NCBI GenBank assembly: GCA_004297215.1
Contig: SCUM01000001.1
Coordinates: 219,642-283,641, forward strand
Source: Patescibacteria group bacterium
GTDB taxonomy: Bacteria; Patescibacteriota; Patescibacteriia; UBA9934; GWF2-40-263
DNA: 64,000 bases
Direction: 5' to 3'
Position 1 is the stretch's first letter. The number at the start of each line of letters is the position of its first letter. The notes under the pieces were generated by a model. That model saw only the letters and a program-made list of their open reading frames with translations. It made no database searches and was not told the origin of the DNA. Made by a program: the position numbers and the translations under genes. Below, in pieces: positions 12,036 through 51,668 of the stretch.

Positions 12036-12067
12036 ACGTCTCGATGCCTCAGGAATCCCTGAAGCCT

Positions 12068-12796
12068 TCACGCCTGCGGCCTTCCCGCCTTTCCATGCCC
12101 GAACGAATAGTTGAACAGGTCGTGCTTGATCGGCCCGAGCGTGGCCAGGTGCAGCTCGGCCAGCATGAACTTGAGCGCGATGTTCACGCGTCCGTCGCGG
12201 TCGAGCCGGCGCACGGACACCGGCACCTTGAACGGCAGGAACCCGAACGAGCCCGCGCGCGCGCCACGGCGCGCGTAGTCGTGGTCTTCGCAGAACGTGA
12301 CGCTCTCGTCGAACCCGCCGATCGCGTCATGGAGCGACCTGCGTACGAGCAGGCAGAACCCGGGCGCATGCGGGAACGCCTTGCCGAGGGCGCGGACGTA
12401 GCGGTTATAGGCGCCGTGCATCACATGGTCGAGTGGGGCGTCGGAAAGGGGGAACACGTCGCATGTGGCGAGGTCGAGCTTGCGGTCTCGCATGCACGCG
12501 ACGGCCTGCTCGAGGAACGTCGGGTCATCAAGCTCCACGTCGGCGTCGAGGAACAGGATGAGCTCGGTGGATGCATGCGCGGCGCCGCGATTGCGTCCGG
12601 GACCTGGCATGCCGCCATCCACCACGCGCGCGCCAAACGAAACCGCGACCTCTCGCGTTCGATCGGTCGAAAACGCGTCCGCCACGATGATTTCGGCAGG
12701 CTGAAGCGTCTGGCGACGGATGGACGCGAGAAGGCGCGGCAGGTAAGTCTCTTCGTCTTTGGCGGGGATGACGATGGTCAGCACACTACCACCCAT
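12068..12796 (-). CDS. family 2 glycosyltransferase
   Basis: GT2 core ...ADA.S.D.T and a DAD motif. Start at the Met abutting the upstream TAG. The C-terminal 7 aa are encoded by a REP copy. Confidence 0.65.
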   Translation of the reverse strand: MGGSVLTIVIPAKDEETYLPRLLASIRRQTLQPAEIIVADAFSTDRTREVAVSFGARVVDGGMPGPGRNRGAAHASTELILFLDADVELDDPTFLEQAVACMRDRKLDLATCDVFPLSDAPLDHVMHGAYNRYVRALGKAFPHAPGFCLLVRRSLHDAIGGFDESVTFCEDHDYARRGARAGSFGFLPFKVPVSVRRLDRDGRVNIALKFMLAELHLATLGPIKHDLFNYSFGHGKAGRPQA

Positions 12797-18506: not shown

Positions 18507-18527
18507 AGGGTCTGGATGAAGAATGTG

Positions 18528-18581
18528 GGATGAAGGATGTAGGATTTCTTTGCGTATCCTACATCCTACATCCTTCATCCT
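18528..18581. promoter_or_regulatory. 19-bp perfect inverted repeat GGGATGAAGGATGTAGGAT / ATCCTACATCCTTCATCC(C) with heptamer duplications, between response-regulator stop and pilin start
   Basis: Seen directly. It overlaps the last codons of the response regulator. Confidence 0.45.
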
Positions 18582-18969
18582 ACATTCTAACCCGTTCCTT
18601 TACGAGCCGCTCCACGTGCGCGCGCGTTTCCGTCGGCGTGACATGGCCCTTGAGCAGGTATCCGTCCGTGCCGCAGGCAAGCGTCTCGCGCACATGCTCG
18701 CGGTCCCCGCGCGCCGTGAGCGCGACCACGACGATGCCGGAGCTGGTCGGGTCTTCCTTGAGCGCGCGGACGAGCGCGAACGCCTCCGGCACCGTATCGG
18801 CGTCGAGGAGCATCGCGTCCGGAGCCTTCTTCGCGACGAGCTTGCGCGCCTCCTTCGCGTCCGGCGCGAGGCGCGCGACCCACCGGGCCGCCTCGAACCG
18901 CCGCGCGTAGATGCCGGCGAACGTCGCGTCCGGATCAACGATGAGCAGCTGGCGCTTGCGGGCAGGCAC
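18580..18969 (-). CDS. stand-alone response regulator receiver (CheY-like) protein
   Basis: 129 aa with LLIVDPD, MLLDAD, VVALTARGD and the GTDGYLLKG receiver motifs. Confidence 0.7.
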   Translation of the reverse strand: MPARKRQLLIVDPDATFAGIYARRFEAARWVARLAPDAKEARKLVAKKAPDAMLLDADTVPEAFALVRALKEDPTSSGIVVVALTARGDREHVRETLACGTDGYLLKGHVTPTETRAHVERLVKERVRM

Positions 18970-18970
18970 A

Positions 18971-20083
18971 CTACTCGATGTCGCGCATCGCGAGCCCGAT
19001 CGACACGGCCATGCGCGGTCCGATCTCGTCGAGCACCGGACGCAGGTCCGCCGGGTAGGACACCCGCGCCCACGGGTCGCCGCGATAGACGTTCAGGTTG
19101 AGCGAGGCGGAGAGGAACTCGGGCACGCCCGGGAGATGCGCGCTGCCGCCGGTCACCACCACCTTTTCCACCTTCTTGAACTCCGTGAGCTCCATGCGCG
19201 CGTACAGCTGGAGCGCGTACTGGATCTCGTGGAGGATGGGTCCCATCGCAGCCTCCACCGCGGGCGGGAGCTTGCCTCCGGGCATGGCCGGCTGGTTCCC
19301 CAGGTCGGTCTTGATCTGTTCGGCCTCCGATTCGGGCACCGACATCTGCTCCATGATCTTCTTCGTGACGGACGATCCTCCCACGTTGATGGACCTGGTG
19401 AGGAACGGGATGCCTTTCTCGACCACGGTGATGTTCGTGCGCCCGAACCCGATGTCGAGGATGAGCACCGCGCTCTTGTCCTTGCCGATCAGGCTGCGGA
19501 TGAGGGCGAAGGACTCGGTATCGATCGCCTGGAGCTCGAGCTTGGCCGTGCGGAAGATCTCGATGTACTTCTGCACGAGCGTCTTGGCCGCGCCCGTGAC
19601 GAGCACGCGCACGTAGTCGGACGGCTTGCCAGCCGGAACCGTTTGTTCTTTTCCTGCGGCCTTCGTGCCTGAGGCCTTCCCCGCCTGCAGAGGATCGATG
19701 AACGTCGAATAGGTGATCATCTCCGAGATGGGAAGCGGGGTGAGCTTGGCCACCTGCGCGTCGATGAGCGGTTTCATCTCCTTCTCGTCCTTGCGCCGCG
19801 GCACCGCCACGATCGTCGAAAAGATCGAGGACAGCGGGAGCGCCGCCATGGCCTTGTTCGTCTTCACCCCGGCGCGCTTGCACAGTTCGGCAAGCGTCTC
19901 CCCGGCGCCCTTGACGTCCTCGAACGGCGAAACCACGGCCTCTCCCGGCTTGCGCTCGGAATAGCCGTAGGTCAGCAGCGTGGCGCGGCCCTTCTCGTTG
20001 GAAAGCTCCACCACCTTGACCCCCCCGGCGCCGACGTCCACGCCGAGGAAACTTTGCTTTTTCGGAGCGCCGAACAGGGCCAT
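18971..20083 (-). CDS. pilM: type IV pilus assembly protein PilM (actin-like ATPase)
   Basis: SFLGVDVGAGGVKVVELS N-terminus and the actin fold ~350 aa. Confidence 0.75.
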   Translation of the reverse strand: MALFGAPKKQSFLGVDVGAGGVKVVELSNEKGRATLLTYGYSERKPGEAVVSPFEDVKGAGETLAELCKRAGVKTNKAMAALPLSSIFSTIVAVPRRKDEKEMKPLIDAQVAKLTPLPISEMITYSTFIDPLQAGKASGTKAAGKEQTVPAGKPSDYVRVLVTGAAKTLVQKYIEIFRTAKLELQAIDTESFALIRSLIGKDKSAVLILDIGFGRTNITVVEKGIPFLTRSINVGGSSVTKKIMEQMSVPESEAEQIKTDLGNQPAMPGGKLPPAVEAAMGPILHEIQYALQLYARMELTEFKKVEKVVVTGGSAHLPGVPEFLSASLNLNVYRGDPWARVSYPADLRPVLDEIGPRMAVSIGLAMRDIE

Positions 20084-20107: not shown

Positions 20108-20509
20108 TCAGGTGTGCGCGTCCAGACACGCATTCACCGCCGCATCCGCCTCCGTGTTCTGCTCGCGTCGCACGTGCTTGAACGTGACGCGCTTGAAGCC
20201 GAGGGCGAGGTTGTGCACCTGCATGAACAGCTTCGCGAGGTCCGGATTCTTCACCTTATACTCGCCCTTGAGCTGCTTCACCGCCAGTTCCGAATCCATG
20301 CGCATCTCCACTTCCGTCGCCCCATGCCGCTTGGCCGCTTCGAGCGCGATGACGATGCCGGTGTACTCCGCCACGTTGTTGGTGGCGCGACCCAGGAACC
20401 GCGAGAGCGTCTCGAGCACTTCGCCGTCCGCGGTCTTCACGACCGCGCCGCCGCACGCCGGCCCCGGGTTGCCGCGCGATCCTCCGTCGGAATAGGTGAT
20501 GAGTTTCAT
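20108..20509 (-). CDS. rnhA: ribonuclease HI
   Basis: MKLITYSDGGSRGNPG, with DEDD catalytic residues in the pattern. Confidence 0.85.
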   Translation of the reverse strand: MKLITYSDGGSRGNPGPACGGAVVKTADGEVLETLSRFLGRATNNVAEYTGIVIALEAAKRHGATEVEMRMDSELAVKQLKGEYKVKNPDLAKLFMQVHNLALGFKRVTFKHVRREQNTEADAAVNACLDAHT

Positions 20510-20523
20510 ACGGATAGGCAGGA

Positions 20524-20588
20524 AGGCCTCAGACGTGAAGGCGTTAAGGGTAATCCCTGAGGCCTTGTCCGCCTAAGGCCTTCACGCC
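20524..20588. repeat. full-length copy of dispersed palindromic REP/MITE-like element (L-arm units ..GTGAAGGCGTTAAGG / centre / R-arm CCTGAGGCCTTGTCCGCCTAAGGCCTTCACGCC)
   Basis: Shares the core GGCCTTGTCCGCCTGAGGCC with at least 12 other loci. It supplies the recJ stop codon. Confidence 0.8.
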
Positions 20589-22396
20589 TTCAAGTCAACG
20601 ATCCTCAACTGCAATTCCCGGTTCCCCTTCCACTCGTTCACGCCTAATTCGAAGGCGACGTCCAATGCCTGCCCCGGTTTCAGTCGCTTCACCCATTCCC
20701 CGAACCGGAACCCGATGAACTTGGCTATTCTCCCACCCTTGCCGCGCGCCGACAACCGGAGATGCTTCCCGTCCGCGCCGACCGTGTCAAAGGCGACGAC
20801 GGTCGCGCGCGAGGCGAACAATGGACGCGGGTTCTTCTCGCCGAACGGTTCGAGTTTCTGCACGGCCTCGAGCAACGCCCAATCCACGTCCTCGAGGTCG
20901 AGGTCGGCGTCCACGCGCAGGATCGGACGCAAGTCATCCGGCTTGATGTGCGCGTCGGCGTGCTTATGGAGCGATTCGACGAGGAACGCGAACCGTTCTT
21001 CCCCGCTCACCGAAAACCCGCACGCCTGCGGATGCCCGCCGAACCGATCGAGGTGTTCCTTGCACGCGTGAAGCGCCGCGGTCACGTCGAACCCGCCGAA
21101 GCTACGGCCGGAGCCGACATAACGCTCGCCATCTTTTCCGACCGCATACACCGGACGACAAAAATCGTTCACCAACTTGCCCGCGACGAGCCCGACGAGT
21201 CCCGGCGACCAGCCGGCGCTTGAGACGATGACGCACTTCGTGTCACCGGGATCGCCGACGAGACGCTTCGCCTCCTGATACATCGCCTCGGACGCCTTCT
21301 GACGATCTGCGTTCACTTCGTTGAGACGCATGGCAAGCTCGGCCGCTCGCGTCGGGTCTTCTTCGAGCAACAACTCGACCGCGCCACGTGCGTGCTCCAT
21401 GCGTCCAGCTGCATTCAGCCGCGGTCCGATCTGAAAACCTATGGTCACGGTGTCGAGCTCCCCGCCCTTGTTACCAGCCGCCTCGAGGAGTTTTTGGATG
21501 CCCACGCGCCGCGTCTTGTTGAGCACTTTGAGCCCATACGTCTCGAGCACGCGGTTCTCCCCCATGAGCGGCATCACGTCCGTGACGGTCGCGATGGCGA
21601 CGAGGTCGAGCAGCCATTTCTCATACCCTTCCGCGAAGCTCGCACCACGTTTAGATGCCTCATGGATAAGCGCGCTCGCCAACTTAAAGGCGACTCCTGT
21701 CCCGCACAGCGTCTTGTTCGGATACGTCTCCCCTGGCACTTGCGGGTGCAGCAGGATGGCCGCGTCCGGGAGCGCGTCGGGCACGGCATGGTGATCGCAC
21801 ACGATGGTGTCCACGCCCAGCTCGCGGCCCCGGTCGATCGCGTCCTTGTTGGAAATGCCGCAGTCCACGGTGATGACCAGCTTTGTCCCTTCGGCCGCAA
21901 GCTTTTCCATGGTCGCGACGGACAGGCCGTAGCCTTCCTTCTCGCGGTGAGGGATATAGGAGGAGAGCTGAAAGGCGGTAGAGGCCCGCAGGCCCGCAGG
22001 GTTTTCCCTGAAAGCCTTGTCCGCCTGGGGGCCTTGTCCGCCTAACGATCGACAGATGTCGCACAGCGTGGACATGAGCACGGTCGTGCCGCACACGCCG
22101 TCCGCGTCGTAGTCGCCGTGGACCGTGATGCGCTCGCCGGCCTCAAGCGCCGCGAAGACGCGCTCAACGGCCGCTTGCATGTTGCGAAACATCGAGGGCG
22201 AGTGCGCATCACGACTCCAATCCGGCCCCAGGAACACGTCCATTTCGGCTTGGGTCCTCACTCCCCTGTTCCACAGCAACCGTAATGCCACCGGATGCAC
22301 GTCCGGGAATGCCGCCCGAGCCTCGTCGGGCACGGCCGGATCGGTTATCCACACGCGCTCTTTCATGGCACGAGGATAGCACAAACGGACCCGCAC
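20582..22396 (-). CDS. recJ: single-stranded-DNA-specific exonuclease RecJ
   Basis: DHH motifs (HGDYDADG) and DHHA1. Contains a ~26-codon in-frame REP insertion (..GGQGPQADKAFRENPAGLRAS..). Confidence 0.88.
   Translation of the reverse strand: MRVRLCYPRAMKERVWITDPAVPDEARAAFPDVHPVALRLLWNRGVRTQAEMDVFLGPDWSRDAHSPSMFRNMQAAVERVFAALEAGERITVHGDYDADGVCGTTVLMSTLCDICRSLGGQGPQADKAFRENPAGLRASTAFQLSSYIPHREKEGYGLSVATMEKLAAEGTKLVITVDCGISNKDAIDRGRELGVDTIVCDHHAVPDALPDAAILLHPQVPGETYPNKTLCGTGVAFKLASALIHEASKRGASFAEGYEKWLLDLVAIATVTDVMPLMGENRVLETYGLKVLNKTRRVGIQKLLEAAGNKGGELDTVTIGFQIGPRLNAAGRMEHARGAVELLLEEDPTRAAELAMRLNEVNADRQKASEAMYQEAKRLVGDPGDTKCVIVSSAGWSPGLVGLVAGKLVNDFCRPVYAVGKDGERYVGSGRSFGGFDVTAALHACKEHLDRFGGHPQACGFSVSGEERFAFLVESLHKHADAHIKPDDLRPILRVDADLDLEDVDWALLEAVQKLEPFGEKNPRPLFASRATVVAFDTVGADGKHLRLSARGKGGRIAKFIGFRFGEWVKRLKPGQALDVAFELGVNEWKGNRELQLRIVDLKA
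21966..22043. repeat. REP-like element inserted in-frame inside recJ CDS
   Basis: GCCTTGTCCGCCTGGGGGCCTTGTCCGCCT plus an AGGCCCGCAGGCCCGCAGG arm. It interrupts the conserved DHH region. Confidence 0.75.
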
Positions 22397-26929: not shown

Positions 26930-26935
26930 ATGAGG

Positions 26936-27012
26936 ATAGGCGTTAAGGCTTCAGGCGTGAAGGCGTTAAGGGATTTCCTGAGGCCTTATCGCCTGAGGCC
27001 TTCATGCCTGAG
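26936..27012. repeat. full-length REP-like element (inverted arrays of ~15-bp units around GGATTTCC centre)
   Basis: GCGTTAAGGCTTCAGGCGTGAAGGCGTTAAGGGATTTCCTGAGGCCTTATCGCCTGAGGCCTTCATGCC. It encodes the last 7 aa and stop of the VKOR gene. Confidence 0.8.
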
Positions 27013-27432
27013 AAGAATGACGCAAAGGATGAGGATCGTCAGAATGGAGACTTGCGACGTCACGCACAGCAGGCACCAGCTCTTGAGCACGAACGCCTCG
27101 ATGCCCGAAAGGTAAAGCGCGAAGGCCGTCCCGCCGGCGGCGGCGGCGAGCAGGATGCGCGTGAGGTTCTTGTCCTGCATGTCGCGGCGCTTGAGCGCCG
27201 CGGCGGCGAGCAGGAACAGGTATCCGAGTACGCCGATGCCTGCCACGGGGATGCCGAACAGCACCGAATACGGCCCCTTGTTGACCACGTCGCAATTGAA
27301 CGTGTCGCCGATGGTGCAGAACGACCCCGACGAGAACCCGCGATTATGAAGGAAGGCGTAGGTCGATATCGAAAGGCCGATGGCGGAGAGGAGCATCACG
27401 AGGTGCAGGACGTGCTTGTCTTTCCCTTCCAT
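26986..27432 (-). CDS. vitamin K epoxide reductase (VKOR) family membrane protein
   Basis: Loop Cys pair (CTIGDTFNCD) and a CLLC active site in the TM helix. Confidence 0.75.
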   Translation of the reverse strand: MEGKDKHVLHLVMLLSAIGLSISTYAFLHNRGFSSGSFCTIGDTFNCDVVNKGPYSVLFGIPVAGIGVLGYLFLLAAAALKRRDMQDKNLTRILLAAAAGGTAFALYLSGIEAFVLKSWCLLCVTSQVSILTILILCVILLRHEGLRR

Positions 27433-29142: not shown

Positions 29143-29216
29143 TCCGGGATCGTCTAATGGCAGGACAACAGACTCTGAATCTGTTTATCTTGGTTCGAAT
29201 CCAAGTCCCGGAACCA
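29143..29216 (+). tRNA. tRNA-Gln (anticodon CUG)
   Basis: Hand-folded cloverleaf. 7-bp acceptor with U1:A72, a perfect anticodon stem ACAGA/TCTGT, loop CTCTGAA, a GGTTCGAATCC T-arm, and encoded CCA. Confidence 0.8.
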
Positions 29217-29218: not shown

Positions 29219-29253
29219 ATTCCTCCATACGCGATGATGGAGGAATTTTTTTC
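29219..29253 (+). terminator. intrinsic terminator (ATTCCTCCAT-loop-ATGGAGGAAT + T8)
   Basis: 10-bp perfect stem followed by TTTTTTTT, directly after the tRNA. Confidence 0.8.
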
Positions 29254-29311
29254 TCGGGACGGGTTCGAGTCGCCTGTAGATAAGTGCCCGAACCCCAATG
29301 AACCGGGGACG

Positions 29312-29339
29312 TTGACCGTGCTTTTCATTCGTCTATAAT
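29312..29339 (+). promoter_or_regulatory. sigma70-like promoter TTGACC-16nt-TATAAT for nrdDG
   Basis: Consensus hexamers seen. Followed by a ~160-nt leader. Confidence 0.5.
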
Positions 29340-29499
29340 CAGGAAGCGATGTGTGTCACTTGTGCTCCCCGAATTCGGATGTCTTTTCTGCTCTACGCTC
29401 CTGTCGAAGGACGTGGTGGGAGAGGCGGGAATCGAGGCCGCATGCAAGGGACGCGTAGCTCGTGAAGCTCGCGGTTCAGCGGGCGTATTCCCCCACCGT

Positions 29500-31296
29500 A
29501 TGCCATCTCCATCCACCATCGACGTGACCGGCACGGTCGAAGAGTACCTCGGACGCGAGGACTGGCGCGTGAACGCGAACGCCAACCAGGGCTACTCCCT
29601 GGGCGGCATGATCCTGAACATGGCCGGAAAGGTGACGGCGAAGTACTGGCTGCACAACGTCTATCCGGAGGCGATCCGGGACGCCCACATCGACGGGGAC
29701 TTCCATATCCATGACCTTGACATGTTTTCCGGCTACTGCGCCGGATGGAGCCTTCGCCAACTCCTCGAGGAAGGGTTCAACGGGGTGGCGAACAAGGTGG
29801 AATCCGCCCCGCCCAAGCATTTCGACACCGCCCTCGGGCAGATGGTGAACTTTCTCGGCACCTTGCAGAACGAATGGGCCGGCGCCCAGGCGTTCTCCTC
29901 GTTCGATACCTACCTCGCCCCCTACGTCAAGGCCGACGGCCTCACCTACGACCAGGTGCGGCAAGGGGTCCAGACCTTCGTGTTCAACCTCAACGTCCCG
30001 TCGCGCTGGGGGATGCAGACCCCGTTCACGAACATCACCCTGGACTGGACCTGCCCGGAAGACATGCGCGAGAAGCAGCCCATGATCGGGGGAGTCGTGC
30101 AGCCCTTCACGTATGCCGATTGCCAGCCGGAGATGGACATCATCAACCGCGCGTACATCGACGTGATGAGCGCCGGTGACAATAAGGGGCGCATCTTCAC
30201 CTTCCCCATCCCCACCTACAACGTCACGAAGGATTTCGACTGGGACCATCCCAACGCCCAAGGGCTGTTCGAGATGACGGCCAAGTACGGCATCCCCTAT
30301 TTCCAAAACTTCCTCAACTCCTCCCTCAACCCGAGCGACGTGCGCAGCATGTGCTGCCGCCTCCAGCTGGACCTGCGGGCGCTCAAGGCGCGCGGGGGCG
30401 GCCTGTTCGGCTCGGCGGAAATGACCGGGAGCGTGGGCGTGGTCACGATCAACCTGCCGCGCATCGGCTACCTCTCGCGCACGAAAGAGGAGTTCTTCAC
30501 GCGCCTGGGGACGCTCATGGACCTCGCGCAGACCTCGCTCGAGCTCAAGCGCAAGGTGGTGCAGGAAAACATGGATCGCGGCCTGCTCCCGTACACCAAG
30601 CGCTACCTGTACTCGCTGCGCAACCATTTCTCCACCATCGGGCTCAACGGGATGAACGAGGCGTGCCTCAACTTCCGCGGATGCGACATCGCCTCGCAAG
30701 ACGGCAAGGCGTTCGCGGAGGAGGTGCTGGTCTTCATGCGCGACCGGCTCGTGGAATACCAGGAGCATACCGGCCACCTGTACAACCTCGAGGCCACGCC
30801 GGCCGAAGGGACGACCTATCGGTTCGCGCGCAAGGACCGCAAGCGGTTCCCGGACATCGTCCAGGCCGGCACGCCGGACGCCCCGTACTACACCAACTCC
30901 TCCCACCTCCCCGTCGGGTACTCGGACAACCCGTTCGACGCGCTCCGGCACCAGGACGACCTGCAGACGAAATACACCGGCGGCACCGTGCTCCATCTCT
31001 TCCTCGGGGAGCGGGTGGAGGACTGGAAGGCGTGCCGCGCGTTCGTCCGCAAGGCCCTGGAAAACTTCCGCCTCCCCTACATCACCGTCACGCCGACGTT
31101 CAGCATCTGCCCGACGCACGGATACCTGCGCGGCGAGCTCCCGACCTGCCCGACCTGCGCGGCGGAATGCGAGGTGTGGTCGCGGATCGTGGGGTATTTC
31201 CGGCCGGTCAGCCAGTGGAACAAGGGAAAGAAGTCGGAGTTCGCCGAACGGGTCGAGTACCGCACGGAAGCTTCCCTTGAACCGGTGTGCGCCTAG
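29500..31296 (+). CDS. nrdD: anaerobic ribonucleoside-triphosphate reductase (class III)
   Basis: C-terminal CPTCAAEC zinc ribbon and the glycyl-radical motif SRIVGYFRP. Confidence 0.88.
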   Translation: MPSPSTIDVTGTVEEYLGREDWRVNANANQGYSLGGMILNMAGKVTAKYWLHNVYPEAIRDAHIDGDFHIHDLDMFSGYCAGWSLRQLLEEGFNGVANKVESAPPKHFDTALGQMVNFLGTLQNEWAGAQAFSSFDTYLAPYVKADGLTYDQVRQGVQTFVFNLNVPSRWGMQTPFTNITLDWTCPEDMREKQPMIGGVVQPFTYADCQPEMDIINRAYIDVMSAGDNKGRIFTFPIPTYNVTKDFDWDHPNAQGLFEMTAKYGIPYFQNFLNSSLNPSDVRSMCCRLQLDLRALKARGGGLFGSAEMTGSVGVVTINLPRIGYLSRTKEEFFTRLGTLMDLAQTSLELKRKVVQENMDRGLLPYTKRYLYSLRNHFSTIGLNGMNEACLNFRGCDIASQDGKAFAEEVLVFMRDRLVEYQEHTGHLYNLEATPAEGTTYRFARKDRKRFPDIVQAGTPDAPYYTNSSHLPVGYSDNPFDALRHQDDLQTKYTGGTVLHLFLGERVEDWKACRAFVRKALENFRLPYITVTPTFSICPTHGYLRGELPTCPTCAAECEVWSRIVGYFRPVSQWNKGKKSEFAERVEYRTEASLEPVCA

Positions 31297-31982
31297 GGGG
31301 ATTCATCCCCGTAAGCCTGCTGGATTATCCGGGCAAGGTGGCCGCGGTCGTGTTCACGCAAGGGTGCCCGTTCCGCTGCGTCTATTGCCACAATCCCGAA
31401 CTGATCCCGTCCGACCGGCCCGGAGCGATCGACGAGGAAGAGGTCATCTCGCGGCTCGCCGTCGACCGCGCCCTGCTCGACGGGGTGTGCGTCACCGGCG
31501 GCGAACCGACGTCCCAGCCGGACCTCCCCGCGTTCCTCGCCCGCATCAAGGCGCTCGGCCTCGCGGTAAAGCTCGACACCAACGGGATGCACCCGCGCAT
31601 GGTGGCGTCCTGCCTTGAGGCCGGCCTCGTGGATTGCCTCGCCATGGACCTCAAGCACCGGTGGGAGCGGTATGCGGACGTGATCGGCGAGCAGGCCGCG
31701 GCGGCCGTCTCGCGATGCCGCGAGACGTTCGCCCTCATCCAGCGCTCCGGCATCGACCATGAGTTCCGCACGACGACGTATCCCCGACTCCATACGGCCG
31801 AGGACCTGCACGAGATCGCCTCCCACCTGAGGCCGGGGGAGCGGTATTTCATACAGCCGATCCGTTACGGCAAGACGTTCGTGCCGGATCTTGAGCGGGT
31901 GCCCATGGACTACGCCGAAACGGTGGCATCCCTTCAGCGGGCCTATCCTCTCCTGGAGATCGCCGTGCGCGGCCAGGCCTGA
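31287..31982 (+). CDS. nrdG: anaerobic RNR activating protein (radical SAM)
   Basis: CPFRCVYCHN CxxxCxxC motif. GTG start overlapping the nrdD stop. Confidence 0.85.
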   Translation: MRLGGFIPVSLLDYPGKVAAVVFTQGCPFRCVYCHNPELIPSDRPGAIDEEEVISRLAVDRALLDGVCVTGGEPTSQPDLPAFLARIKALGLAVKLDTNGMHPRMVASCLEAGLVDCLAMDLKHRWERYADVIGEQAAAAVSRCRETFALIQRSGIDHEFRTTTYPRLHTAEDLHEIASHLRPGERYFIQPIRYGKTFVPDLERVPMDYAETVASLQRAYPLLEIAVRGQA

Positions 31983-32083
31983 ACCGCTCGCTTAGAGCCC
32001 GGTCTCGCGATTTATCCACCGTTGACAACCATGCCGGATTCAGGCATCATTTCGGTTCCATCGAACATTTTCGCGGAGGCTAG

Positions 32084-32365: not shown

Positions 32366-33986
32366 ATGCCGCGCTGCCGCCGAACTCCTCGAGAAGGAGG
32401 TCCACGGCCTCGTCCGGATCCGTCGCTCGCGCATACGTGCCGTGCAGGTGCAGGCGCGCGCCGTACACGCGCTCGAGCACGGGATCGAGGATGAGGCGGT
32501 TGCGGACGGTATTGAGCGTGTCGGCGTGGAGCGAATAGGCGAAGCTGATCTCGATGCGGTCGCCATCCACCCTGGAGATCTCTCCGGTCCGCAGCACGAC
32601 GGGCAGCGACGCGTTTGCGGCCTTCACCAGCTGGAACACGTCCGGCCATTTGGCCTTGACCTGGTCGATGGAGAGGACGGGGACGGTGCCGAGAGCAGTG
32701 GGGGGAGAAGGCGGTAAGGCATCAGGCGTTGAAGGCCTCAGGACGGGCGAATCGGAGACCGAAATAGTCTGAACTTCTACGTTCCCTTCGGCCTTGTCGC
32801 CTACGGCCTTCACGCCTCCCTCTAGCCTCACCGAACCAACCCTCGTCCTCCTAAAATCCGCGCTTCCCTGCGGGCCTTGTCCGCCTGAGGCCTTGTCCGC
32901 CTCGCCGACGCACGACTCCACGATCGCGATCTCTAACGGGAGCGATGGAATGGATTCGCCTTTGGACTGACGCCGCGCCTTTTCAAAACGATCGATGAGC
33001 ACGGCGATCGCACGCGGATTCGTCTGCCCAAGCAATGCGGTAAGTCGTCCTGCGCTGTCATGGTCGAGGCGCGAGGGGAGCGCTTGCGCGTCGCCAAGGC
33101 TCGCGTGGAGCAGGGCGCGCAAGGCGTCCACCACGTCGGCGGCGAAATGCGGGAGATCGACCCCCTGCTCCGCCACCTTCCCGACGAGGGCCACGGCCGA
33201 GGCCGCGTCGCGCTTCACCACGTGTTCGACGAGTTCGGCGGCCGCCAGCGCGTTGGTCGCGGGCAAGACGAGCGAGGCCTCTTCCATCCCCACCTTCTTG
33301 CCGCCGATGGCGAACAGCTGGCCAAGAAGCGACTCGGCATCGCGCAATCCTCCTTCGGCATGACGCGCCACGGCCGCGAGCACGGCTTCCTCGACCTCCA
33401 CCCCTTCCTTCTTGGCGATGCCACGGAGCGTCTCGACGAGTTCCGCGACGGGGATGCGTCGGAAATCGAACCGTTCGCAGCGGCTGATCACCGTCGCGGG
33501 GACCTTGTGGATCTCGGTGGTGGCCAGGATGAACACGGCGTGCGCGGGCGGCTCCTCGAGCGTCTTTAAGAGCGCGTTGAACGAACCGGCGGAGAGCATG
33601 TGCACCTCGTCGATCACGTACACGCGGCGCTTGAGGCGGTTGGGCGCGAAACGCACGGCCTCGATCACCGTCTCGCGGATGTTGTCGACGCCCGTGTGCG
33701 TGGCCGCGTCGATCTCGAGCACGTCCATGGCCGAACCGGCGGCGACGGACTGGCAGGACTCGCACGCGTTACACGGCTCGCCCCCCTTCGACGCGAGACA
33801 ATTCACGGCCTTGGCCAGGATGCGGGCGATGGTGGTCTTCCCCACCCCGCGCGGACCCGTGAACAGATACGCATGCGCGACCTTGCCCGAAACAACCTCG
33901 TTTCTGAGCGTGGTCTTCACGTGGTCCTGGCCGACCACTTCGTCGAAGCAGGTCGGACGGTAGGTTCGATACAAGGCTTCGGACAT
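32364..33986 (-). CDS. dnaX: DNA polymerase III subunit gamma/tau
   Basis: GPRGVGKTT Walker A, a Cys4 Zn module and sensor motifs. Carries 3 in-frame REP-derived segments in the linker. Confidence 0.9.
   Translation of the reverse strand: MSEALYRTYRPTCFDEVVGQDHVKTTLRNEVVSGKVAHAYLFTGPRGVGKTTIARILAKAVNCLASKGGEPCNACESCQSVAAGSAMDVLEIDAATHTGVDNIRETVIEAVRFAPNRLKRRVYVIDEVHMLSAGSFNALLKTLEEPPAHAVFILATTEIHKVPATVISRCERFDFRRIPVAELVETLRGIAKKEGVEVEEAVLAAVARHAEGGLRDAESLLGQLFAIGGKKVGMEEASLVLPATNALAAAELVEHVVKRDAASAVALVGKVAEQGVDLPHFAADVVDALRALLHASLGDAQALPSRLDHDSAGRLTALLGQTNPRAIAVLIDRFEKARRQSKGESIPSLPLEIAIVESCVGEADKASGGQGPQGSADFRRTRVGSVRLEGGVKAVGDKAEGNVEVQTISVSDSPVLRPSTPDALPPSPPTALGTVPVLSIDQVKAKWPDVFQLVKAANASLPVVLRTGEISRVDGDRIEISFAYSLHADTLNTVRNRLILDPVLERVYGARLHLHGTYARATDPDEAVDLLLEEFGGSAA
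32708..32902. repeat. cluster of three REP-like arm copies inside dnaX CDS (32708-32742, 32789-32816, 32868-32902), all in-frame
   Basis: AGGCGTTGAAGGCCTCAGG; GGCCTTGTCGCCTACGGCCTTCACGCC; GGGCCTTGTCCGCCTGAGGCCTTGTCCGCC. Confidence 0.75.
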
Positions 33987-37178: not shown

Positions 37179-37709
37179 TTAGACGGCGTTGCCGCGCTCA
37201 CGCTTCTCCGCTTCCGCGAGCAAGAGGAGCTTGTCGGTCTTGATCTTGGCTTCCTGCTCCAAGTAGAACCTGTTCGCCCGGTCGGAGAGGAGCTTCAGCC
37301 AGTCGCGGATGGCGTCGAACACCTTCTTCACGTTCACCTTGGTCTGCATGAGCAGCTCCCGCACCGAACGCGCGGTCTCTTCGCCCTGCTTCTTGAAATG
37401 CGCGCGCTCCTTGGGAGAAAGCTGCTTGTAGATTTCTTCAAGCCCTTCGGAAAGGACCGCTTCGACCTCCGCCGTCATCCGGTCCTTGGGGGCCTGGATG
37501 ACCCGTTGCACCATCTGCACGGGGGTCGGTGCCGCGACAGGTTCGGTCGCAGCCTGCTCTGTCGTTGGCTCCTCAAGCTCTTCAAACTCCTCTTTCCCTT
37601 CCGGCGCAGCTTCAACCCGCCTGCCCGCCGTAGCTTCAGCGGAGGCGGGTTCAACTCGAATCTCCCCGCCGACCGGGGCAAGACCTTTCTTTTCGGGCTC
37701 CAAGGCCAT
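37179..37709 (-). CDS. hypothetical protein (176 aa; acidic N-half, helical C-half)
   Basis: C-terminal portion of ORF 37179..38105, from the internal Met that follows the cysS stop and a REP copy. Confidence 0.45.
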   Translation of the reverse strand: MALEPEKKGLAPVGGEIRVEPASAEATAGRRVEAAPEGKEEFEELEEPTTEQAATEPVAAPTPVQMVQRVIQAPKDRMTAEVEAVLSEGLEEIYKQLSPKERAHFKKQGEETARSVRELLMQTKVNVKKVFDAIRDWLKLLSDRANRFYLEQEAKIKTDKLLLLAEAEKRERGNAV

Positions 37710-37731
37710 AGATGGGGCTATTGTAGCACAA

Positions 37732-37767
37732 AAGGCGGACAAGGCCTCAGGCGTTGAAGGCCTTAGG
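37732..37767. repeat. REP-like L-arm copy (AAGGCGGACAAGGCCTCAGGCGTTGAAGGCCTTAGG); contains cysS stop codon
   Basis: Family core in reverse orientation. Confidence 0.75.
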
Positions 37768-39139
37768 AAGTCTTGATGACGGGTCCGTTCGCGCCGTCTT
37801 CGACGGCAAACCCTCGAACGGCGATCTCGTCGCGCAGCCGGTCGGATTCCTTCCAATCCTTTGCCTTCCGCGCCGCTTCGCGGGCCTGCACCAGCATATG
37901 GACGTCGTCCGGGACTTCGATCGCCTTTCCGACGAGATCGACGAGTCCCAACCCGAATACCGAGTCGAACACGGCGAGCGACTTGGCCTTCGCCGCGCTC
38001 GGGAGCGACGCGTCCTCGACCATGTTCCACAGGGCTGCCAGCGCTTCCGGCGTGTTCAGGTCGTCTTCGATCGCCTTCCAGAACGCACGCTCGTGATCGG
38101 CACATCCGACCGTGCCAGGCTCATCCCAACCTCGGACCGTGTCGCGCAGGCGCTTGAGCGCATTCTGCGCCGCCGTGAGCGCTTCCCAGGTGAAATTCAG
38201 CTTCGTCCGGTAATGGGCGCCCAGGCAGAAATAGCGGAAGGCGAGCGGATCGAATCCGCGGGTGACCAATTCCTCGAGCGTGAACAGGTTGCCGAGCGAC
38301 TTGCTCATCTTGCCGCCGTCGACCGTGAGGAACTCGCCGTGCATCCAGACGTTGGCCTCGAGGACGCCGTCGGCCCCTTGCGTCTGCGCGAGCTCGTTCT
38401 CGTGGTGCACCGGCACATGGTCGATGCCGCCGGTGTGGATGTCGAACGGGACGCCGAGAAACTTCTTGGACATCGCGGAGCACTCGATGTGCCAGCCCGG
38501 GAACCCTTTTCCCCAGGGAGATTCCCACTCCATTTCGCGTTTCCCGTCCGTCGGCGAGAACTTCCACAGGGCGAAGTCCGTCGAATTCCGCTTTTCGCCC
38601 ATGTCCACGCGCGCGCCCGCCTTCTTGTCTTCCGCTTTCTGACCGGACAGCCGGCCGTAATCCGGGAGCTTCGACGTTTCGAAATACACGCCGTCGGACG
38701 TGACGTACGCGTACCCGTTCTTCTCCAGTCGACGGATCATGTCGATCTGCTCCGGAATGTTGTCGGTGGCCCGCGGATACGCATCCGCCGGCAGGACGTT
38801 CAACCGCGCCAGGTCCTTCATGAACGCCGCCTCGTAGAACCGGGCGATGTCGTAGGCGGTCTTCCCCTCGCGACGCATCGCGAGCAGCATCTTGTCCTCG
38901 CCCAGGTCGGCGTCATCCGTGAGATGGCCCACGTCGGTGACGTTCATGACGAGCTTCGTCTTCAGGCCGGCCATCGACAGGGCACGTCGCAGCACGTCCA
39001 CGAACACGTATGTGCGCAAATTTCCCACATGCGCGAACCAATACACGGTGGGGCCGCAGGCATAGATGCCGACATTCCCTTCCTGGATGGGCTTGAATTC
39101 CTCGACCTTGCGTGTGAGCGTGTTGTAGAGCCGGATCAT
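37763..39139 (-). CDS. cysS: cysteine--tRNA ligase
   Basis: MIRLYNTLTRK..YACGPTVY, HVGN (HIGH) and KMSKS motifs. Start at the internal Met. Confidence 0.9.
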   Translation of the reverse strand: MIRLYNTLTRKVEEFKPIQEGNVGIYACGPTVYWFAHVGNLRTYVFVDVLRRALSMAGLKTKLVMNVTDVGHLTDDADLGEDKMLLAMRREGKTAYDIARFYEAAFMKDLARLNVLPADAYPRATDNIPEQIDMIRRLEKNGYAYVTSDGVYFETSKLPDYGRLSGQKAEDKKAGARVDMGEKRNSTDFALWKFSPTDGKREMEWESPWGKGFPGWHIECSAMSKKFLGVPFDIHTGGIDHVPVHHENELAQTQGADGVLEANVWMHGEFLTVDGGKMSKSLGNLFTLEELVTRGFDPLAFRYFCLGAHYRTKLNFTWEALTAAQNALKRLRDTVRGWDEPGTVGCADHERAFWKAIEDDLNTPEALAALWNMVEDASLPSAAKAKSLAVFDSVFGLGLVDLVGKAIEVPDDVHMLVQAREAARKAKDWKESDRLRDEIAVRGFAVEDGANGPVIKTS

Positions 39140-41311: not shown

Positions 41312-41791
41312 TCACAGCAATCCGCGGAGTTTCTTGATCACGCGATGCGTGGCCATCTTGAGCGACGTCGCGGGCCGGCCGAGCAATTCGGCCATGTCCG
41401 CGTATCCATACCCCTCAAGGTACTTGAGCGTAACAAGGCGTCGTTCCTCGGGTTCCAGCGCCGAAAAGGCCCTGGCCACCAGCCGCTGGTCGTCGGTCCG
41501 CTGCTCCAGGCCGCGACCGTCCTGTCCCACGAGCAGGTCGCAGACGTCATCGAGGTCCACATGCATGCGCCGGTCGCGGTACCAGTTGGCGAGGTGGTTA
41601 TGCGCGATGCGGTAGATCCAGGCCGAGCGGGACACGGCCTCGTCGTAGCGGTCGAACGCCGCGAGCGCCTTCAGGAAGATCTCGCTCGTCAGGTCCTCGG
41701 CGGTCGGCTCGTCCGGGACGCGCAAACGGACGTATCGGTAGATACGATCGATGTTCGCGCAATAGAAGCGGTCAAATGCCCTGCGATCCAT
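41312..41791 (-). CDS. ECF-type RNA polymerase sigma factor
   Basis: Sigma70 region 2 (..YRIAHNHLANWYR) and region 4 (LKYLEGYGYADMAELLG). Confidence 0.8.
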   Translation of the reverse strand: MDRRAFDRFYCANIDRIYRYVRLRVPDEPTAEDLTSEIFLKALAAFDRYDEAVSRSAWIYRIAHNHLANWYRDRRMHVDLDDVCDLLVGQDGRGLEQRTDDQRLVARAFSALEPEERRLVTLKYLEGYGYADMAELLGRPATSLKMATHRVIKKLRGLL

Positions 41792-41796
41792 GGATG

Positions 41797-41882
41797 AGGC
41801 GATAAGGCCTCAGGCAAGAAGGCCACAGATTGACGAATCCTTCAAATCCCTGAAGCCTTGTCCGCCTGAGGCCTTCACGCCT
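41797..41882. repeat. full-length REP-like element between sigma factor start and upstream gene stop
   Basis: GGCGATAAGGCCTCAGGCAAGAAGG..centre..CCTGAAGCCTTGTCCGCCTGAGGCCTTCACGCC. Confidence 0.8.
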
Positions 41883-42432
41883 CCCTACGCCGGATCGCGC
41901 CGAATGCCACCATCGCGACGATGGGGAGCAGGGCCCACACGCTCTTGCCCCCGTCGCTCGTGAAGACGGTGCGCGTGAGCGGCGACAGCCAGGGCGACGT
42001 GTCGGCCGGGAAGAAGGACAGGGTGACGCTGATGAGCAGGCCCGCGTGCAGGACGGAAAACGCGGCAACTTGCATGAAGCTCCCCTGCTCGGCCGACGCG
42101 CCGAACGCCTTGAGGAGCGCGGACTGCGACAGGAGGAAGAACAGCAGGATGAACGCGCCCAGGAACACGCTCACCTTGAGCGCGAAGGTGTCGTTCACGG
42201 AGATGCTCGCCTGGAACTCGCTGATGAACGGCACGTACTTCACCACGGCGAGCGCCATGTAGATCGCCACCATCATCACGAGGATGCGGTCGCGGCCGAG
42301 GCTGATGCCGTAGAGCAGCGAGGAAACGAGGAAGAACAGGATGATGAACACATCCCACGACGGCTGCAGCCAGTTGATGCTCGACAGGTACTGGGCGGCC
42401 TGGTGCGTGTCGATGACGACGGTCTGTAGCAT
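41875..42432 (-). CDS. hypothetical polytopic membrane protein
   Basis: 185-aa ORF with 5-6 hydrophobic helices. Confidence 0.5.
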   Translation of the reverse strand: MLQTVVIDTHQAAQYLSSINWLQPSWDVFIILFFLVSSLLYGISLGRDRILVMMVAIYMALAVVKYVPFISEFQASISVNDTFALKVSVFLGAFILLFFLLSQSALLKAFGASAEQGSFMQVAAFSVLHAGLLISVTLSFFPADTSPWLSPLTRTVFTSDGGKSVWALLPIVAMVAFGAIRRREA

Positions 42433-45241: not shown

Positions 45242-46591
45242 TTACCTTTTTCCTAAAGACTTTTTCCCTCGCACGTTGCGATGGTACTTTACCGCGAACC
45301 GGTGCGCCTCGTCACGGACGGCCTGGAACAGCTCTTTGCCGCGATGGATGACCTTCACGAGCTCGGCATCGTCCTTGTCATACACCAGTCGATCCTGACG
45401 ACGATCGAACCCCTTCGCGATTCCCAGCACATGAAGCTCCTCAAGCTCCCCAAGCTCCTCGATTACTCCCTCGACGGTGTTCACCTGCCCCTCTCCCCCG
45501 TCGATCACCATCACCTGCGGCAGCTCCCATCCCTTCTCGCCGCGGATGCCGCGCACGAGGCGACGGCGCACCACCTCGGCCATGGACGCGAAATCGTTGG
45601 CGCCCTCGACCGTCTTTACCCTGAACGTGCGGTACAGCGTCTTGTCCGGACGGCCTTCCACGAACACGGTCATGGACGCCACGTTCGACGTGCCGGAGAT
45701 GTTGCTGATGTCGAACGCCTCGATGCGGCCGTCCAGGTCGATTCCCCCGTCCGTTTCGGGCTTCGAGAACGGGAGCTCCACGTCCTCGCGCGTGATGAGC
45801 GCCACGTCGCGGATGTGCTCGAGCGCATAAATCCCGTTACGCAACTTTGCCGCCTCCTCAAACTGATTCGCTTTCGCCGCCGCTTTCATGTCGCGTTCCA
45901 TCTGACTGACAAGGAGCGCCTTCCTCCCCTCAAAGAACAGCACGAACCGACGTATGATCTTCCTGTAGTCTGCGGACGAGATCGCTCCCGTACACACGCC
46001 CGGACAGCGGCCGAGGTGGACGTCGAAGCAGGGGCGGGAGTTGGTATGTGGGAGTTGGGAGTTGGTATGCGCAGGCGGGATGCAGGTACTCCACGGAATC
46101 ACCTTGCGGATGAGGTCGAGCGCGCGCTTCAGGGACAGGCCGCTCGTGTACGGGCCGAAGACGCGAAGGAACTTCTTTTTCGCGGCGCCGGAGAGCGCGG
46201 CGTCGAACGGGTTCACGCCCAGCTTCTCGAGCTCGTGGCCGCGCATGATGAGCGGGCGCGGGAATCTCTCGTTGGTGACGACGAGATAATTGAACGTCTT
46301 GTCGTCCGTCATCAGCACGTTGTAGTACGGCTTGAGCGCCTTGATCTTATTCGCTTCAAGCACGAGCGCCTCGATCACCGTGGGCGTCTCCACGTAGTCG
46401 ATGCGGGCGATCCGACCGACCATTTCCGCGAGACGGGCGTTGTGCGCCTTGGTGAAATACGACGCGACGCGTTTCTTGAGCGAGGTGGCCTTGCCGACGT
46501 ACAGCAACGCGTCGGCCGCGTCGTAATAGAAATACACCCCGGGAGAATCGGGGAGCGAACCGTCCTTGATGGTTATGGATGCCGGGAGCAT
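45242..46591 (-). CDS. uvrC: excinuclease ABC subunit C, lacking C-terminal (HhH)2 domain
   Basis: GIY-YIG N-terminus (PGVYFYYD..LYVGKA), a UvrBC domain and an RNase H-like domain. Starts at the internal Met. Carries a small in-frame tandem duplication. Confidence 0.85.
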   Translation of the reverse strand: MLPASITIKDGSLPDSPGVYFYYDAADALLYVGKATSLKKRVASYFTKAHNARLAEMVGRIARIDYVETPTVIEALVLEANKIKALKPYYNVLMTDDKTFNYLVVTNERFPRPLIMRGHELEKLGVNPFDAALSGAAKKKFLRVFGPYTSGLSLKRALDLIRKVIPWSTCIPPAHTNSQLPHTNSRPCFDVHLGRCPGVCTGAISSADYRKIIRRFVLFFEGRKALLVSQMERDMKAAAKANQFEEAAKLRNGIYALEHIRDVALITREDVELPFSKPETDGGIDLDGRIEAFDISNISGTSNVASMTVFVEGRPDKTLYRTFRVKTVEGANDFASMAEVVRRRLVRGIRGEKGWELPQVMVIDGGEGQVNTVEGVIEELGELEELHVLGIAKGFDRRQDRLVYDKDDAELVKVIHRGKELFQAVRDEAHRFAVKYHRNVRGKKSLGKR

Positions 46592-47031: not shown

Positions 47032-47445
47032 GTGACCGCTTTCGCCATCCTCTTCACCATGGCCGCGATCGGCATTGCCGAGACGAGCTACCTCATCCGC
47101 GCCCGCAAGGCGGCCGAACGGCCGGTGTGCGTGCTCGTGAACGGGTGTTCCAAGGTGCTTGAGAGCCGGTACAATTCCCTCTTCGGTGTGCACAACGACC
47201 TGCTGGGCCTCGCGTTCTACCTCGCGATGAGCGCCCTTACCGCGCTGCTGGTGATAGGCGCCGGTCCGGTGCCGTGGTGGGAACTGGGCGCCAAGCTCCT
47301 GGTGGGCGGCGGCCTGGTCATGTCTGCGGCGCTCACCTTCATCCAATGGCGCGTCCTCAAGGCCTGGTGCTTCTGGTGCCTCATGTCAGCCGGCACGGTG
47401 CTCGTCATGGCCCTTGTCCTCTTGCCTGCGGCCTTGTCCGCCTGA
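47032..47445 (+). CDS. VKOR-family membrane protein (second copy)
   Basis: Loop Cys pair VNGC and a CFWC active site. The last 7 aa plus stop come from a REP copy. Confidence 0.7.
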   Translation: MTAFAILFTMAAIGIAETSYLIRARKAAERPVCVLVNGCSKVLESRYNSLFGVHNDLLGLAFYLAMSALTALLVIGAGPVPWWELGAKLLVGGGLVMSAALTFIQWRVLKAWCFWCLMSAGTVLVMALVLLPAALSA

Positions 47446-47458
47446 GGCCTTCAATGCC
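47426..47458. repeat. REP-like R-arm copy (CTGCGGCCTTGTCCGCCTGAGGCCTTCAATGCC)
   Basis: Family core. It provides the VKOR stop codon. Confidence 0.75.
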
Positions 47459-51591: not shown

Positions 51592-51597
51592 ACGGAT

Positions 51598-51668
51598 AGG
51601 CGGTAAGGCTTCAGGCGTGAAGGCCTTAGGATTTCCTGAGGCCTTGTCCGCCTGAGGCCTTCTTGCCT
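51598..51668. repeat. full-length REP-like element in uvrA-uvrB junction; encodes the last ~12 aa of UvrB
   Basis: AGGCGGTAAGGCTTCAGGCGTGAAGGCCTTAGGATTTCCTGAGGCCTTGTCCGCCTGAGGCCTTCTTGCC. Confidence 0.8.

Follow-up and report, generated by a model that had tools for sequence, protein, structure and literature searches.

Introduction

Rickettsia palindromic elements (RPEs) are, according to published summaries, repeats of ~105-150 bp which fall into the families RPE-1 to RPE-10 and lie in-frame in Rickettsia genes (Ogata et al. 2000; PMC10969869, PMC3733652). In-frame repeats in uvrA, uvrB and other repair genes are already described in other phyla: intragenic repetitive extragenic palindromic (REP) sequences, found as singles or dimers in Opitutus terrae, Thioalkalivibrio and R. 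conorii, encode 10-30 amino acids in uvrA, uvrB, polymerases and recBCD, and their bias towards replication and repair genes was left unexplained (Di Nocera et al. 2013; PMC3733652). Between operon genes, repeats of 40-100 bp occur as mycobacterial interspersed repetitive units (MIRUs), reviewed in PMC3184786, and these can form variable tandem arrays. Here we describe a family of short palindromic repeats in a 64,000-nt stretch of a Patescibacterium genome (contig SCUM01000001.1, positions 219,642-283,641, assembly GCA_004297215.1; hereafter the window), to which all counts refer. We consider it probable, with roughly three chances in four, that these small, non-autonomous palindromic repeats form a selfish family specific to the lineage and filtered by selection.

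The host is an Uhrbacteria-like Patescibacterium with an 842-kb genome. The closest relatives of its RecJ and UvrA are those of Candidatus Uhrbacteria, and both proteins are 100% identical to proteins of a metagenome-assembled genome listed at NCBI as 'Patescibacteria group bacterium' (RecJ = P0001, UvrA = P0121), where they lie on a contig of 842,311 bp. The window has a GC content of ~63% and lacks Shine-Dalgarno sequences upstream of most of its genes. This lack was considered as an effect of the element and ruled out, because most window genes are without such a site. Pyrimidine-rich bases precede the start codons, and TAnnnT boxes resembling -10 boxes lie 10-20 nt off several starts, suggesting very short leaders.

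For comparison we used sets of 120 RecJ and 120 UvrA orthologs and four syntenic contigs of relatives, among them L121, L122 and L124/L125; the relatives L126 and L127 are cited for single sites. The RecJ of L121 is 78% identical to that of the window. L122 has a UvrA 90% identical to that of the window and DNA ~86% identical. L124/L125 is Uhrbacteria RIFCSPHIGHO2_01_FULL_63_20 (L125 is MGDT01000007.1 of GCA_001791045.1), with DNA ~77% identical to the window. L122 and L124 may or may not stem from one genome.

A discrete family of two-armed repeats

The 12-mer GGCGGACAAGGC occurs 14 times in the window at no more than one mismatch, where 0.71 occurrences are expected, and none of 100 shuffles reached 14. 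A hidden Markov model (HMM) of the repeat arm, built from 20 arms, gave 25 matches at E<=5e-5 while the next match came only at E~1; this gap indicates that the family is discrete. With the same model only 2 matches were found in 51 kb of the relatives. Joining AGGC words at a spacing of 6-9 nt into chains also recovered the copies in dnaX, uvrA, copA and at the end of GT2, along with others. The elements occupy 14 loci, of which 8 lie at gene junctions and only 6 are internal to genes (five in number), although ~92% of the window is coding.

An arm, such as AAGGCGGGAAGGCCTCAGGCGGACAAGGCCTCAGGG, is 32-38 nt long and consists of four blocks with a period of ~8 nt, in which AGGCG(nn/nnn) alternates with AAGGCC(nC) and the end reads CAGG(G/A). 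Between the conserved blocks lie 2-3 variable bases. A full element is formed by two inverted arms around a short loop and makes an interrupted hairpin of 70-95 nt, within which the conserved blocks are paired and the variable bases bulged. Its two arms differ in subtype, one having AGGCGGACAAGGCC beside the loop and the other being GGATAGGCGGTAAGGCTTCAGGCGTGAAGGCC. The outer terminus is GGAT-AGGC, which reads GCCTATCC on the opposite strand. Two loci in unrelated genes, at 51637 and 56889, have an identical 27-nt core.

For four junction elements the folding energy is -37 to -55 kcal/mol and the z score -5.8 to -7.0, namely for those at 26935-27012 (-37.1 kcal/mol, z -5.8), uvrB|uvrA (-44.8 kcal/mol, z -7.0), recJ|rnhA (-46.2 kcal/mol, z -6.5) and 41794-41885 (-54.9 kcal/mol, z -6.3). 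The palindromic elements inside recJ (-40.9 kcal/mol, z -2.6) and dnaX (-53.8 kcal/mol, z -3.3) fold as well. Single arms are little structured: of six examined, five are no more stable than shuffles (z -1.4 to +0.5), and the sixth is the lone arm at 37730-37768 (z -2.9). Covariation is seen at 2 of 25 pairs with compensatory changes, the copies being too similar to one another to be informative.

The minus strand carries 12 of the exact core motifs, which number 13. A fixed polarity with respect to the chromosome strand was considered and dropped: the two informative loci, 47420 and 37733, contradict each other, and therefore no polarity rule can be claimed.

A search of the window against Rfam returned two tRNAs only and no riboswitch or other known RNA matching the element. 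Two scans of JGI metagenome contigs did not find the family (0 matches; 4 unrelated tandem repeats). A scan of 596 Gb of genome contigs with GGCGGACAAGGCNNCAGG, a very short pattern, gave scattered single matches in unrelated phyla that look mostly like chance. In that scan Umezawaea tangerina was matched seven times (L006, L037, L038, L040, L045, L077 and L080), and this species may have a repeat of its own containing GGCGGACAAGGCNNCAGG.

Copies inside genes

Positions of all copies are given in Table 1. The element inside recJ, which on the minus strand reads TTAGGCGGACAAGGCCCCCAGGCGGACAAGGCTTTCAGGGAAAACCCTGCGGGCCTGCGGGCCTCTACCGCCTTTCAG, encodes ~24 amino acids (GGQGPQADKAFRENPAGLRASTAF). 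About 110 of the 120 RecJ orthologs are without this segment and read ...CRAL-GFDEK-KITSYIPHREKEGYG. The ~24 extra residues fall between DHH motif I and the following strand, and the DHH-motif residues form invariant alignment columns. Structures of RecJ in the PDB fail to align over query residues 103-132. An AlphaFold2 model of the window RecJ has a mean pLDDT of 92.3 and one extended low-confidence stretch (residues ~108-131, pLDDT ~50), located between helix 88-107 and strand 134-137. A diverged palindromic element is present at exactly the same RecJ site in L124. The RecJ copy is an old insertion common to a related Uhrbacteria genome and not a recent one. A few other RecJ relatives have unrelated inserts at this site, for example the hairpin CCCCCCTTGGTAAGGGGGG in L121. 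In the L124/L125 relative, the NCBI call of recJ (L125 14754-16091) begins past the palindromic insert and gives 445 aa, while the ENA call (L124 14292-16091) gives 599 aa; the repeat may disturb the calling of this gene.

The pilM arm is present with 1 mismatch in L124 and missing in L121, which shows an 8-aa gap. Compared to the DnaX of L124, the window DnaX contains 18 and 22 extra residues, both overlapping element arms and both located in the linker ahead of the C-terminal domain. The actuator domain of CopA has the insert in its first hairpin, where the loop is longer than in solved CopA-type ATPases.

In UvrA the insert amounts to 12 aa when compared to PDB 2r6f, and L122 UvrA reads HVWLPSSDKSIVDV where the window UvrA carries it. 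The AlphaFold2 model of UvrA has pLDDT <50 at residues 327-335. The loop is minimal in 45 of the 120 UvrA orthologs, including three of the closest (90%, 82% and 81% identity). More than half of the 120 carry inserts of many unrelated sequences at HVWLP|SIVD (residues ~324-340, window 50570-50620), some of which resemble translated repeats of other families (EIAS..PRNDG, PPL.KG.., GAKGAEG); the loop contains GGGAAGGC x3 in L126 and AAGGGGCNN x4 in L127. RecJ residues ~107-132 and the UvrA loop are insertion hot spots in Uhrbacteria, as seen in the 120 orthologs of each. These loops either tolerate or attract insertions; of the two we prefer tolerance, together with insertions arising in large supply. 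The UvrA of this clade measures ~840-850 aa (window 49033-51591) and is without roughly residues 330-417 of Geobacillus UvrA (2r6f), which places the halves of the UvrA zinc module nearly adjacent.

All internal inserts keep the reading frame of the host gene. Since the host genes retain their invariant and catalytic motifs and have normal GC at the codon positions, including the third (GC3), they are not pseudogenes, an objection that had been foreseen when the copies were first reported. When 38 ortholog pairs were scanned without bias, four of the eight window-specific insertions of at least 8 aa were the element, and one more belonged to a second repeat family (see below). The predicted peptides across the insert junctions are SLGGQGPQADK (RecJ), ADKAPGR (UvrA), AGRPQADK (CopA) and ASGGQGPQGSADFR (DnaX).

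The initial annotation of this DNA had placed copies in recJ (21966-22043), dnaX (three segments, 32708-32902), uvrA (50578-50614), copA (56887-56922) and at the C-terminus of the GT2 gene (12068-12091), without disruption of the frame. These copies are all present, at 21966-22046, 32706-32905 (three arms), 50578-50615, 56886-56923 and 12057-12093, the host ORFs are intact, and translation reproduces the peptides that it quoted. To these we add the internal pilM copy (19652-19689) and the gene-junction placement of eight copies. Its view that the segments derive from the element and are not ancestral agrees with the absence of the segments in uvrA, copA and dnaX of syntenic relatives and in the RecJ orthologs mentioned above. 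Surface loops or linkers had been anticipated as their location, and the RecJ and UvrA inserts do sit in low-confidence AlphaFold2 loops and the DnaX inserts in a linker. What does not hold is the claim that the element is always read in the same frame. With the core GGCGGACAAGGCC as reference for the frames, copA, uvrA, the second unit of recJ and the first unit of dnaX are read in the ADKA frame, and the GGQG frame is found in the first unit of recJ, the second unit of dnaX and the UvrB tail. An Arg-rich frame (RRTRPQ) is never internal and occurs once, in an 8-aa C-terminal tail. The antisense arm of dnaX is read as LRPSTPDALPPS, and units of 16 and 17 nt change the frame inside one copy. 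There may be a preference for the frames giving small flexible peptides of Gly, Ala, Lys and Ser, which with about 7 cases is not significant. Closure of the antisense orientation by stop codons was rejected as the cause of the sense orientation, being only weakly true (31 of 60 frames open in antisense vs 37 of 60 in sense).

Copies at gene junctions

At all 8 junction copies the upstream stop codon either overlaps the first bases of the element or falls within it, and in seven it is contained within the element. The element therefore encodes the terminal residues of GT2, RecJ, UvrB and four further proteins. In 6 of the 8 copies the downstream ATG lies 0-5 nt past the conserved GCCTATCC-like end. 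The tandem array in the last of the junction copies (62826-62928) has a period of 15 and 6.9 copies at 100% match.

Table 1. Positions of the element copies, and of the recJ gene, in the window
Feature	Position	Strand	Details
Arm with short hairpin at the end of GT2	12046-12094	-	last residues KAGRPQA and TGA stop are element sequence; GT2 by Pfam
Single arm in pilM	19652-19689	-	encodes QAGKASGTKAAG
Full palindromic element, recJ|rnhA	20508-20593	-	supplies the recJ TGA; rnhA ATG after the 3' end (GCCTATCC-GT-ATG)
recJ (host gene)	20582-22366	-	intact; DHH, DHHA1 and RecJ_OB domains; TGA stop inside the downstream junction element
Full palindromic element in recJ	21966-22046	-	5' arm 22010-22043, loop GGGAAAACCC, degenerate 3' arm 21966-21997
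Full palindromic element	26935-27012	-	between VKOR-like gene (26986-27432, stop in 5' arm) and 81-aa gene (start 26929)
Palindromic element in dnaX linker	32706-32820	-	sense arm 32784-32820 (GGVKAVGDKAEG), antisense arm 32706-32743 (LRPSTPDALPPS), loop ~45 nt
Extra single arm in dnaX linker	32867-32905	-	encodes EADKASGGQGPQ
Lone arm	37730-37768	+	right after the cysS stop, upstream of a TACAAT box; only exact plus-strand core copy
Full palindromic element	41794-41885	-	between genes 41875-42432 and 41312-41791
Single arm	47420-47462	-	between plus-strand genes 47032-47445 and 47466-47849; upstream TGA inside; downstream ATG after GCCTATCC
Single arm in uvrA	50578-50615	-	encodes a 12-letter peptide; 33 extra nt vs L122
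Full palindromic element, uvrB|uvrA	51595-51671	-	12-letter UvrB tail and stop are element sequence; uvrA ATG after GCCTATCC-GT
Single arm in copA	56886-56923	-	start of the actuator domain; encodes a 12-letter peptide; 30 extra nt vs L122
Seven perfect tandem 15-mers (AGGCGATAAGGCCGC, plus strand) and inverted arm (62933-62969, minus)	62826-62969		DUF362 TAG stop in the arm; next ATG 62817

Filled and empty sites in related genomes

Presence and absence were compared between related genomes, as had been suggested for these elements. Nine loci that are filled in the window are empty in syntenic relatives (~77-86% DNA identity), namely uvrA, copA, uvrB|uvrA, the 47420 junction, recJ|rnhA, 26938, both dnaX sites and the site downstream of cysS. 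L122 is empty at four of them: in the window uvrA has 33 extra nt, copA 30 and the 47420 junction 39, and at uvrB|uvrA the L122 genes share an overlapping GTATGA stop/start. The outgroup L127, too, is empty at uvrB|uvrA, with an 8-nt gap there. L124 is empty at recJ|rnhA, 26938, both dnaX sites and downstream of cysS, and L121 at recJ|rnhA and pilM. In both L121 and L124, recJ and rnhA meet in an overlapping GTATGA stop/start where the element is absent; at the 26938 junction L124 has a 2-nt gap in its place. At uvrB|uvrA about 22 native bases have been replaced. The insertions at recJ|rnhA and uvrB|uvrA end identically (GCCTATCCG|TATGAA), both having entered an AGG^TATGAA overlap.

Three loci are common to the window and a relative: pilM and recJ with L124, and the 41797 junction with L122, where the orthologous palindrome has diverged. 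These common loci imply that the family predates the split of the lineages. No copies specific to a relative were found in the ~44 kb compared. With nine loci specific to the window, three common and none specific to a relative, the family appears to be older than the lineages and to have expanded recently in that of the window; the sequences thus point to a recent multiplication in this lineage.

At the site corresponding to window 37731-37770, L124 holds a cassette of ~880 nt (L124 778-1674) resembling a REP-associated tyrosine transposase (RAYT) locus. It encodes a 233-aa IS200-like Y1 transposase (Pfam PF01797 at 28.7 bits) and has CCCCGTCACCAGGTGACGGGG hairpins on both sides. A link between the element and RAYTs through this Y1_Tnp gene was considered and rejected: the flanking hairpins are other ones, and both the gene and the CCCCGTCACCAGGTGACGGGG hairpins are absent from the window. 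Neither the window nor the loci of the relatives showed an insertion sequence (IS) element.

Origin and persistence of the copies

If the copies belong to a selfish repeat, the family would multiply, and in a ~92% coding genome with overlapping genes only harmless copies would persist. Surviving junction copies would be those that hold or overlap the upstream stop and leave the downstream ATG intact. Surviving in-gene copies would be those whose length is a multiple of three, which contain no stop in the frame used, which are read in frames rich in Gly, Ala, Lys and Ser, and which lie in flexible loops or linkers; these copies are presumably translated as extra disordered loops. Filtering by selection is suggested by the location of only 6 of the 14 loci inside genes, the preserved frames, the restriction of low AlphaFold2 confidence to the inserts, and the share of the element among the insertions found without bias (4 of 8).

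Two copying routes can be envisaged, a transposase acting in trans from elsewhere in the genome, or template switching guided by microhomology or gene conversion from existing copies. The discreteness of the family, the identical ends of two independent insertions and the confinement of the expansion to one lineage count for the transposase.

Several observations weigh against a mobile selfish repeat. No transposase was found in the window, either by tblastn with the RAYT-like protein of L124 or in a Pfam search with ten ORFs. Neither recJ|rnhA nor uvrB|uvrA nor 47420 shows a target-site duplication, the ambiguity at recJ|rnhA being <=1 nt. Boundaries vary from copy to copy, from single arms through full palindromes to the tandem array. 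Microhomologies to the element occur at the junctions, GAAGG at recJ|rnhA, AAGAAG at uvrB, and GGACAA/ACAAGG at uvrA and copA, and they suit templated copying as well as transposition. Precise loss in the relative might in principle explain the pattern at the loci with a single comparator, copA, 47420, 26938 and dnaX. The first four of these points, together with the ~22 bases replaced at uvrB|uvrA, count for templated copying as the route.

Could the junction hairpins be the selected feature? Acting as intercistronic RNA or DNA elements, they would stabilise or process operon mRNA or uncouple overlapping genes, and the in-gene copies would be by-products. Such a role would suit the uniform placement of the junction copies (a stop in or overlapping every one, an ATG 0-5 nt past the GCCTATCC-like end in 6 of 8), the high stability of the hairpins, the retention of the 41797 copy in both lineages and a genome without Shine-Dalgarno sites, in which intergenic structure could matter. 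However, because close relatives simply overlap the same genes without the element and cope, a selected role at junctions is possible but unneeded. No T-run terminator follows the hairpins, unstructured single arms have spread too, and survivorship in the absence of free intergenic space predicts the same placement. We regard this explanation, which is itself compatible with a selfish origin, as rather unlikely.

Identical stretches of 27 nt and longer at unrelated loci, the common two-arm architecture and the distinct arm subtypes are beyond what local replication slippage can yield. Copies are also found at non-coding junctions, and the family is discrete and forms no continuum. It is thus very improbable that the copies arose without mobility, by slippage of short purine-rich units in Gly/Ala/Lys linkers and convergent expansion of low complexity, even though the array of 7 x 15 nt at 62826-62928, which is perfect, further tandem repeats of 9 nt in uvrA (51135-51167) and uvrB (52362-52397), and the differing short-unit runs in the UvrA loops of L126 and L127 would be expected from such a process.

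Still less credible is that the segments are ancestral, or were acquired together with the genes, and that the relatives have lost them. L124 does have the RecJ and pilM copies, and the UvrA and RecJ loops hold some insert in many Uhrbacteria; but the inserts of other lineages are unrelated in sequence, the nearest UvrA relatives (90%, 82% and 81%) show the minimal loop, solved RecJ and UvrA structures are without the segments, and the same DNA occurs at non-coding junctions. That the in-gene copies are skipped by ribosome bypass, removed, or lie in inactive genes is the least likely reading, for although strong hairpins are present within the recJ and dnaX mRNA, skipped copies would need neither a kept frame nor stop-free frames, in the single arms of uvrA, copA and pilM no structure is present that could drive a bypass, and the host genes retain all catalytic motifs and a normal codon bias.

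Other repeats and neighbouring genes

A second in-frame repeat family consists of a REP-like hairpin of 30-34 nt, CCCGCCTCCGCCGAGGCTTCGGCGGGCGGG, which encodes (D/E)PASAEA(S/T)AG(G/R). It is found at 57365-57398 and 57434-57467 in the N-terminal linker of copA and at 37619-37652 in the ORF 37179-37700. The copy at 57366-57395 is missing from the CopA of L122 and forms a clean insertion of 30 nt in the window; at the other copA site L122 contains a different sequence of the 'PLTKG' type.

A third palindrome at a junction (18508-18593), built from the 7-nt units GTAGGAT and GAAGGAT and folding at -45.5 kcal/mol, lies between a response-regulator gene and the next gene, with the ATG directly after it. 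It is absent in L121, and in L124 the junction is occupied by a different purine-rich spacer.

The 9-nt tandem repeats in uvrB and uvrA each encode a 12-letter peptide. That in uvrA is a 6-aa insertion relative to L122, and a similar run is present at the same UvrB site in L127. A further 9-nt repeat, GAGCTTGAG or its complement, is found in three genes including uvrC and copA (57959-57995, 45434-45460 and 56237-56286).

The genes for nrdD (29353-31296) and a radical-SAM activase (31287-31982) adjoin a tRNA gene (29143-29213) at window ~29220-32010. This block has no counterpart in the syntenic locus of L124, indicating a lineage-specific block beside the tRNA.

Implications

If the copies do stem from a selfish repeat, then a streamlined, 842-kb and ~92% coding genome can still host one that is actively expanding; for want of free space, such a repeat would come to lie within essential proteins or alter the ends of genes. 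Old copies common to lineages and copies confined to one lineage would provide dated cases of the origin of disordered loops and new C-termini, and they flag permissive sites in RecJ, UvrA, CopA and DnaX. The association of intragenic palindromic repeats with repair and replication genes (Di Nocera et al. 2013, PMC3733652) would be extended to a new phylum. Such repeats can mislead gene calling, as in the recJ of the relative, and the perfect 7 x 15-nt array, for instance, has potential as a strain-typing marker.

Unrelated inserts are present at the same loops in over half of the 120 UvrA orthologs and in about 10 of the 120 for RecJ. It is tempting to see in this recurrence a clade-wide process in Uhrbacteria, and possibly in the wider candidate phyla radiation, by which lineage-specific palindromic families of short units repeatedly colonise the same permissive loops and operon stop/start overlaps through microhomology-guided copying independent of a transposase, reshaping loops, gene termini and translational coupling. 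We offer this broader proposal tentatively, and consider it doubtful as it stands. Our searches of the literature on the candidate phyla radiation gave nothing specific on such elements.

Comparison with known repeat systems

TIGR arrays consist of hairpins around paired variable spacers with box C/D motifs, beside a tas (Nop-domain) gene (10.64898/2026.09.09.750476). This comparison was rejected: in our element the variable positions measure only 2-3 nt, the copies are dispersed in housekeeping genes, and no box C/D k-turn pattern is seen in the internal loops.

[quoted passage not shown] They differ from the window element, in which no target-site duplication was detected, for which no parent IS is known and whose copy boundaries vary.

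The junction copies recall MIRUs in being intercistronic, in containing or overlapping the upstream stop (8 of 8) and in having an ATG within 0-5 nt (6 of 8). MIRUs, too, are said to overlap the flanking stop and start codons, as Supply and co-workers reportedly noted in 1997. MIRUs are direct and not palindromic, however, differ in sequence and host, and are not reported to insert frequently in-frame inside genes.

The initial annotation had drawn a parallel with RPEs, which stands for the behaviour of the element and fails for its sequence and length. The two have in common that a small palindromic repeat of a reduced genome is inserted in-frame in unrelated housekeeping genes as extra peptides compatible with the fold, and is also found in intergenic positions. 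In the window such in-frame insertion with an intact ORF is seen at six loci in five genes. In contrast to the ~105-150 bp reported for RPEs, the window element is much shorter (arms 32-38 nt, full element 70-95 nt). It has no CGTC tag of the kind on RPE-4 and RPE-6 and, as far as published descriptions of RPEs go, is unrelated to them in sequence. Its arms are made of 8-nt periodic blocks, its host is a high-GC Patescibacterium, and half-elements insert too.

The label REP-like, also given initially, is apt in one respect: as in the REP/REPIN-RAYT systems (PMC3733652, PMC3116915, PMC3337134), inverted doublets form long hairpins, mostly between co-directional genes, and four junction elements are doublet hairpins of this kind. 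It is misleading in others, as a REP unit of 20-40 nt is a stem-loop by itself whereas a single arm in the window is not, neither GTAG nor CGTC stands at the terminus, and a RAYT is lacking in the window, while in L124 the gene resembling one is flanked by the different hairpin CCCCGTCACCAGGTGACGGGG. Replication and repair genes are hit by intragenic REPs and, in the window, by our element (uvrA, the uvrB tail, recJ and dnaX). The intragenic REPs of Di Nocera et al. are a closer match in behaviour than the RPEs. The element belongs to none of the RPE, REP, MITE and MIRU families, and is a new sequence family of known behaviour.

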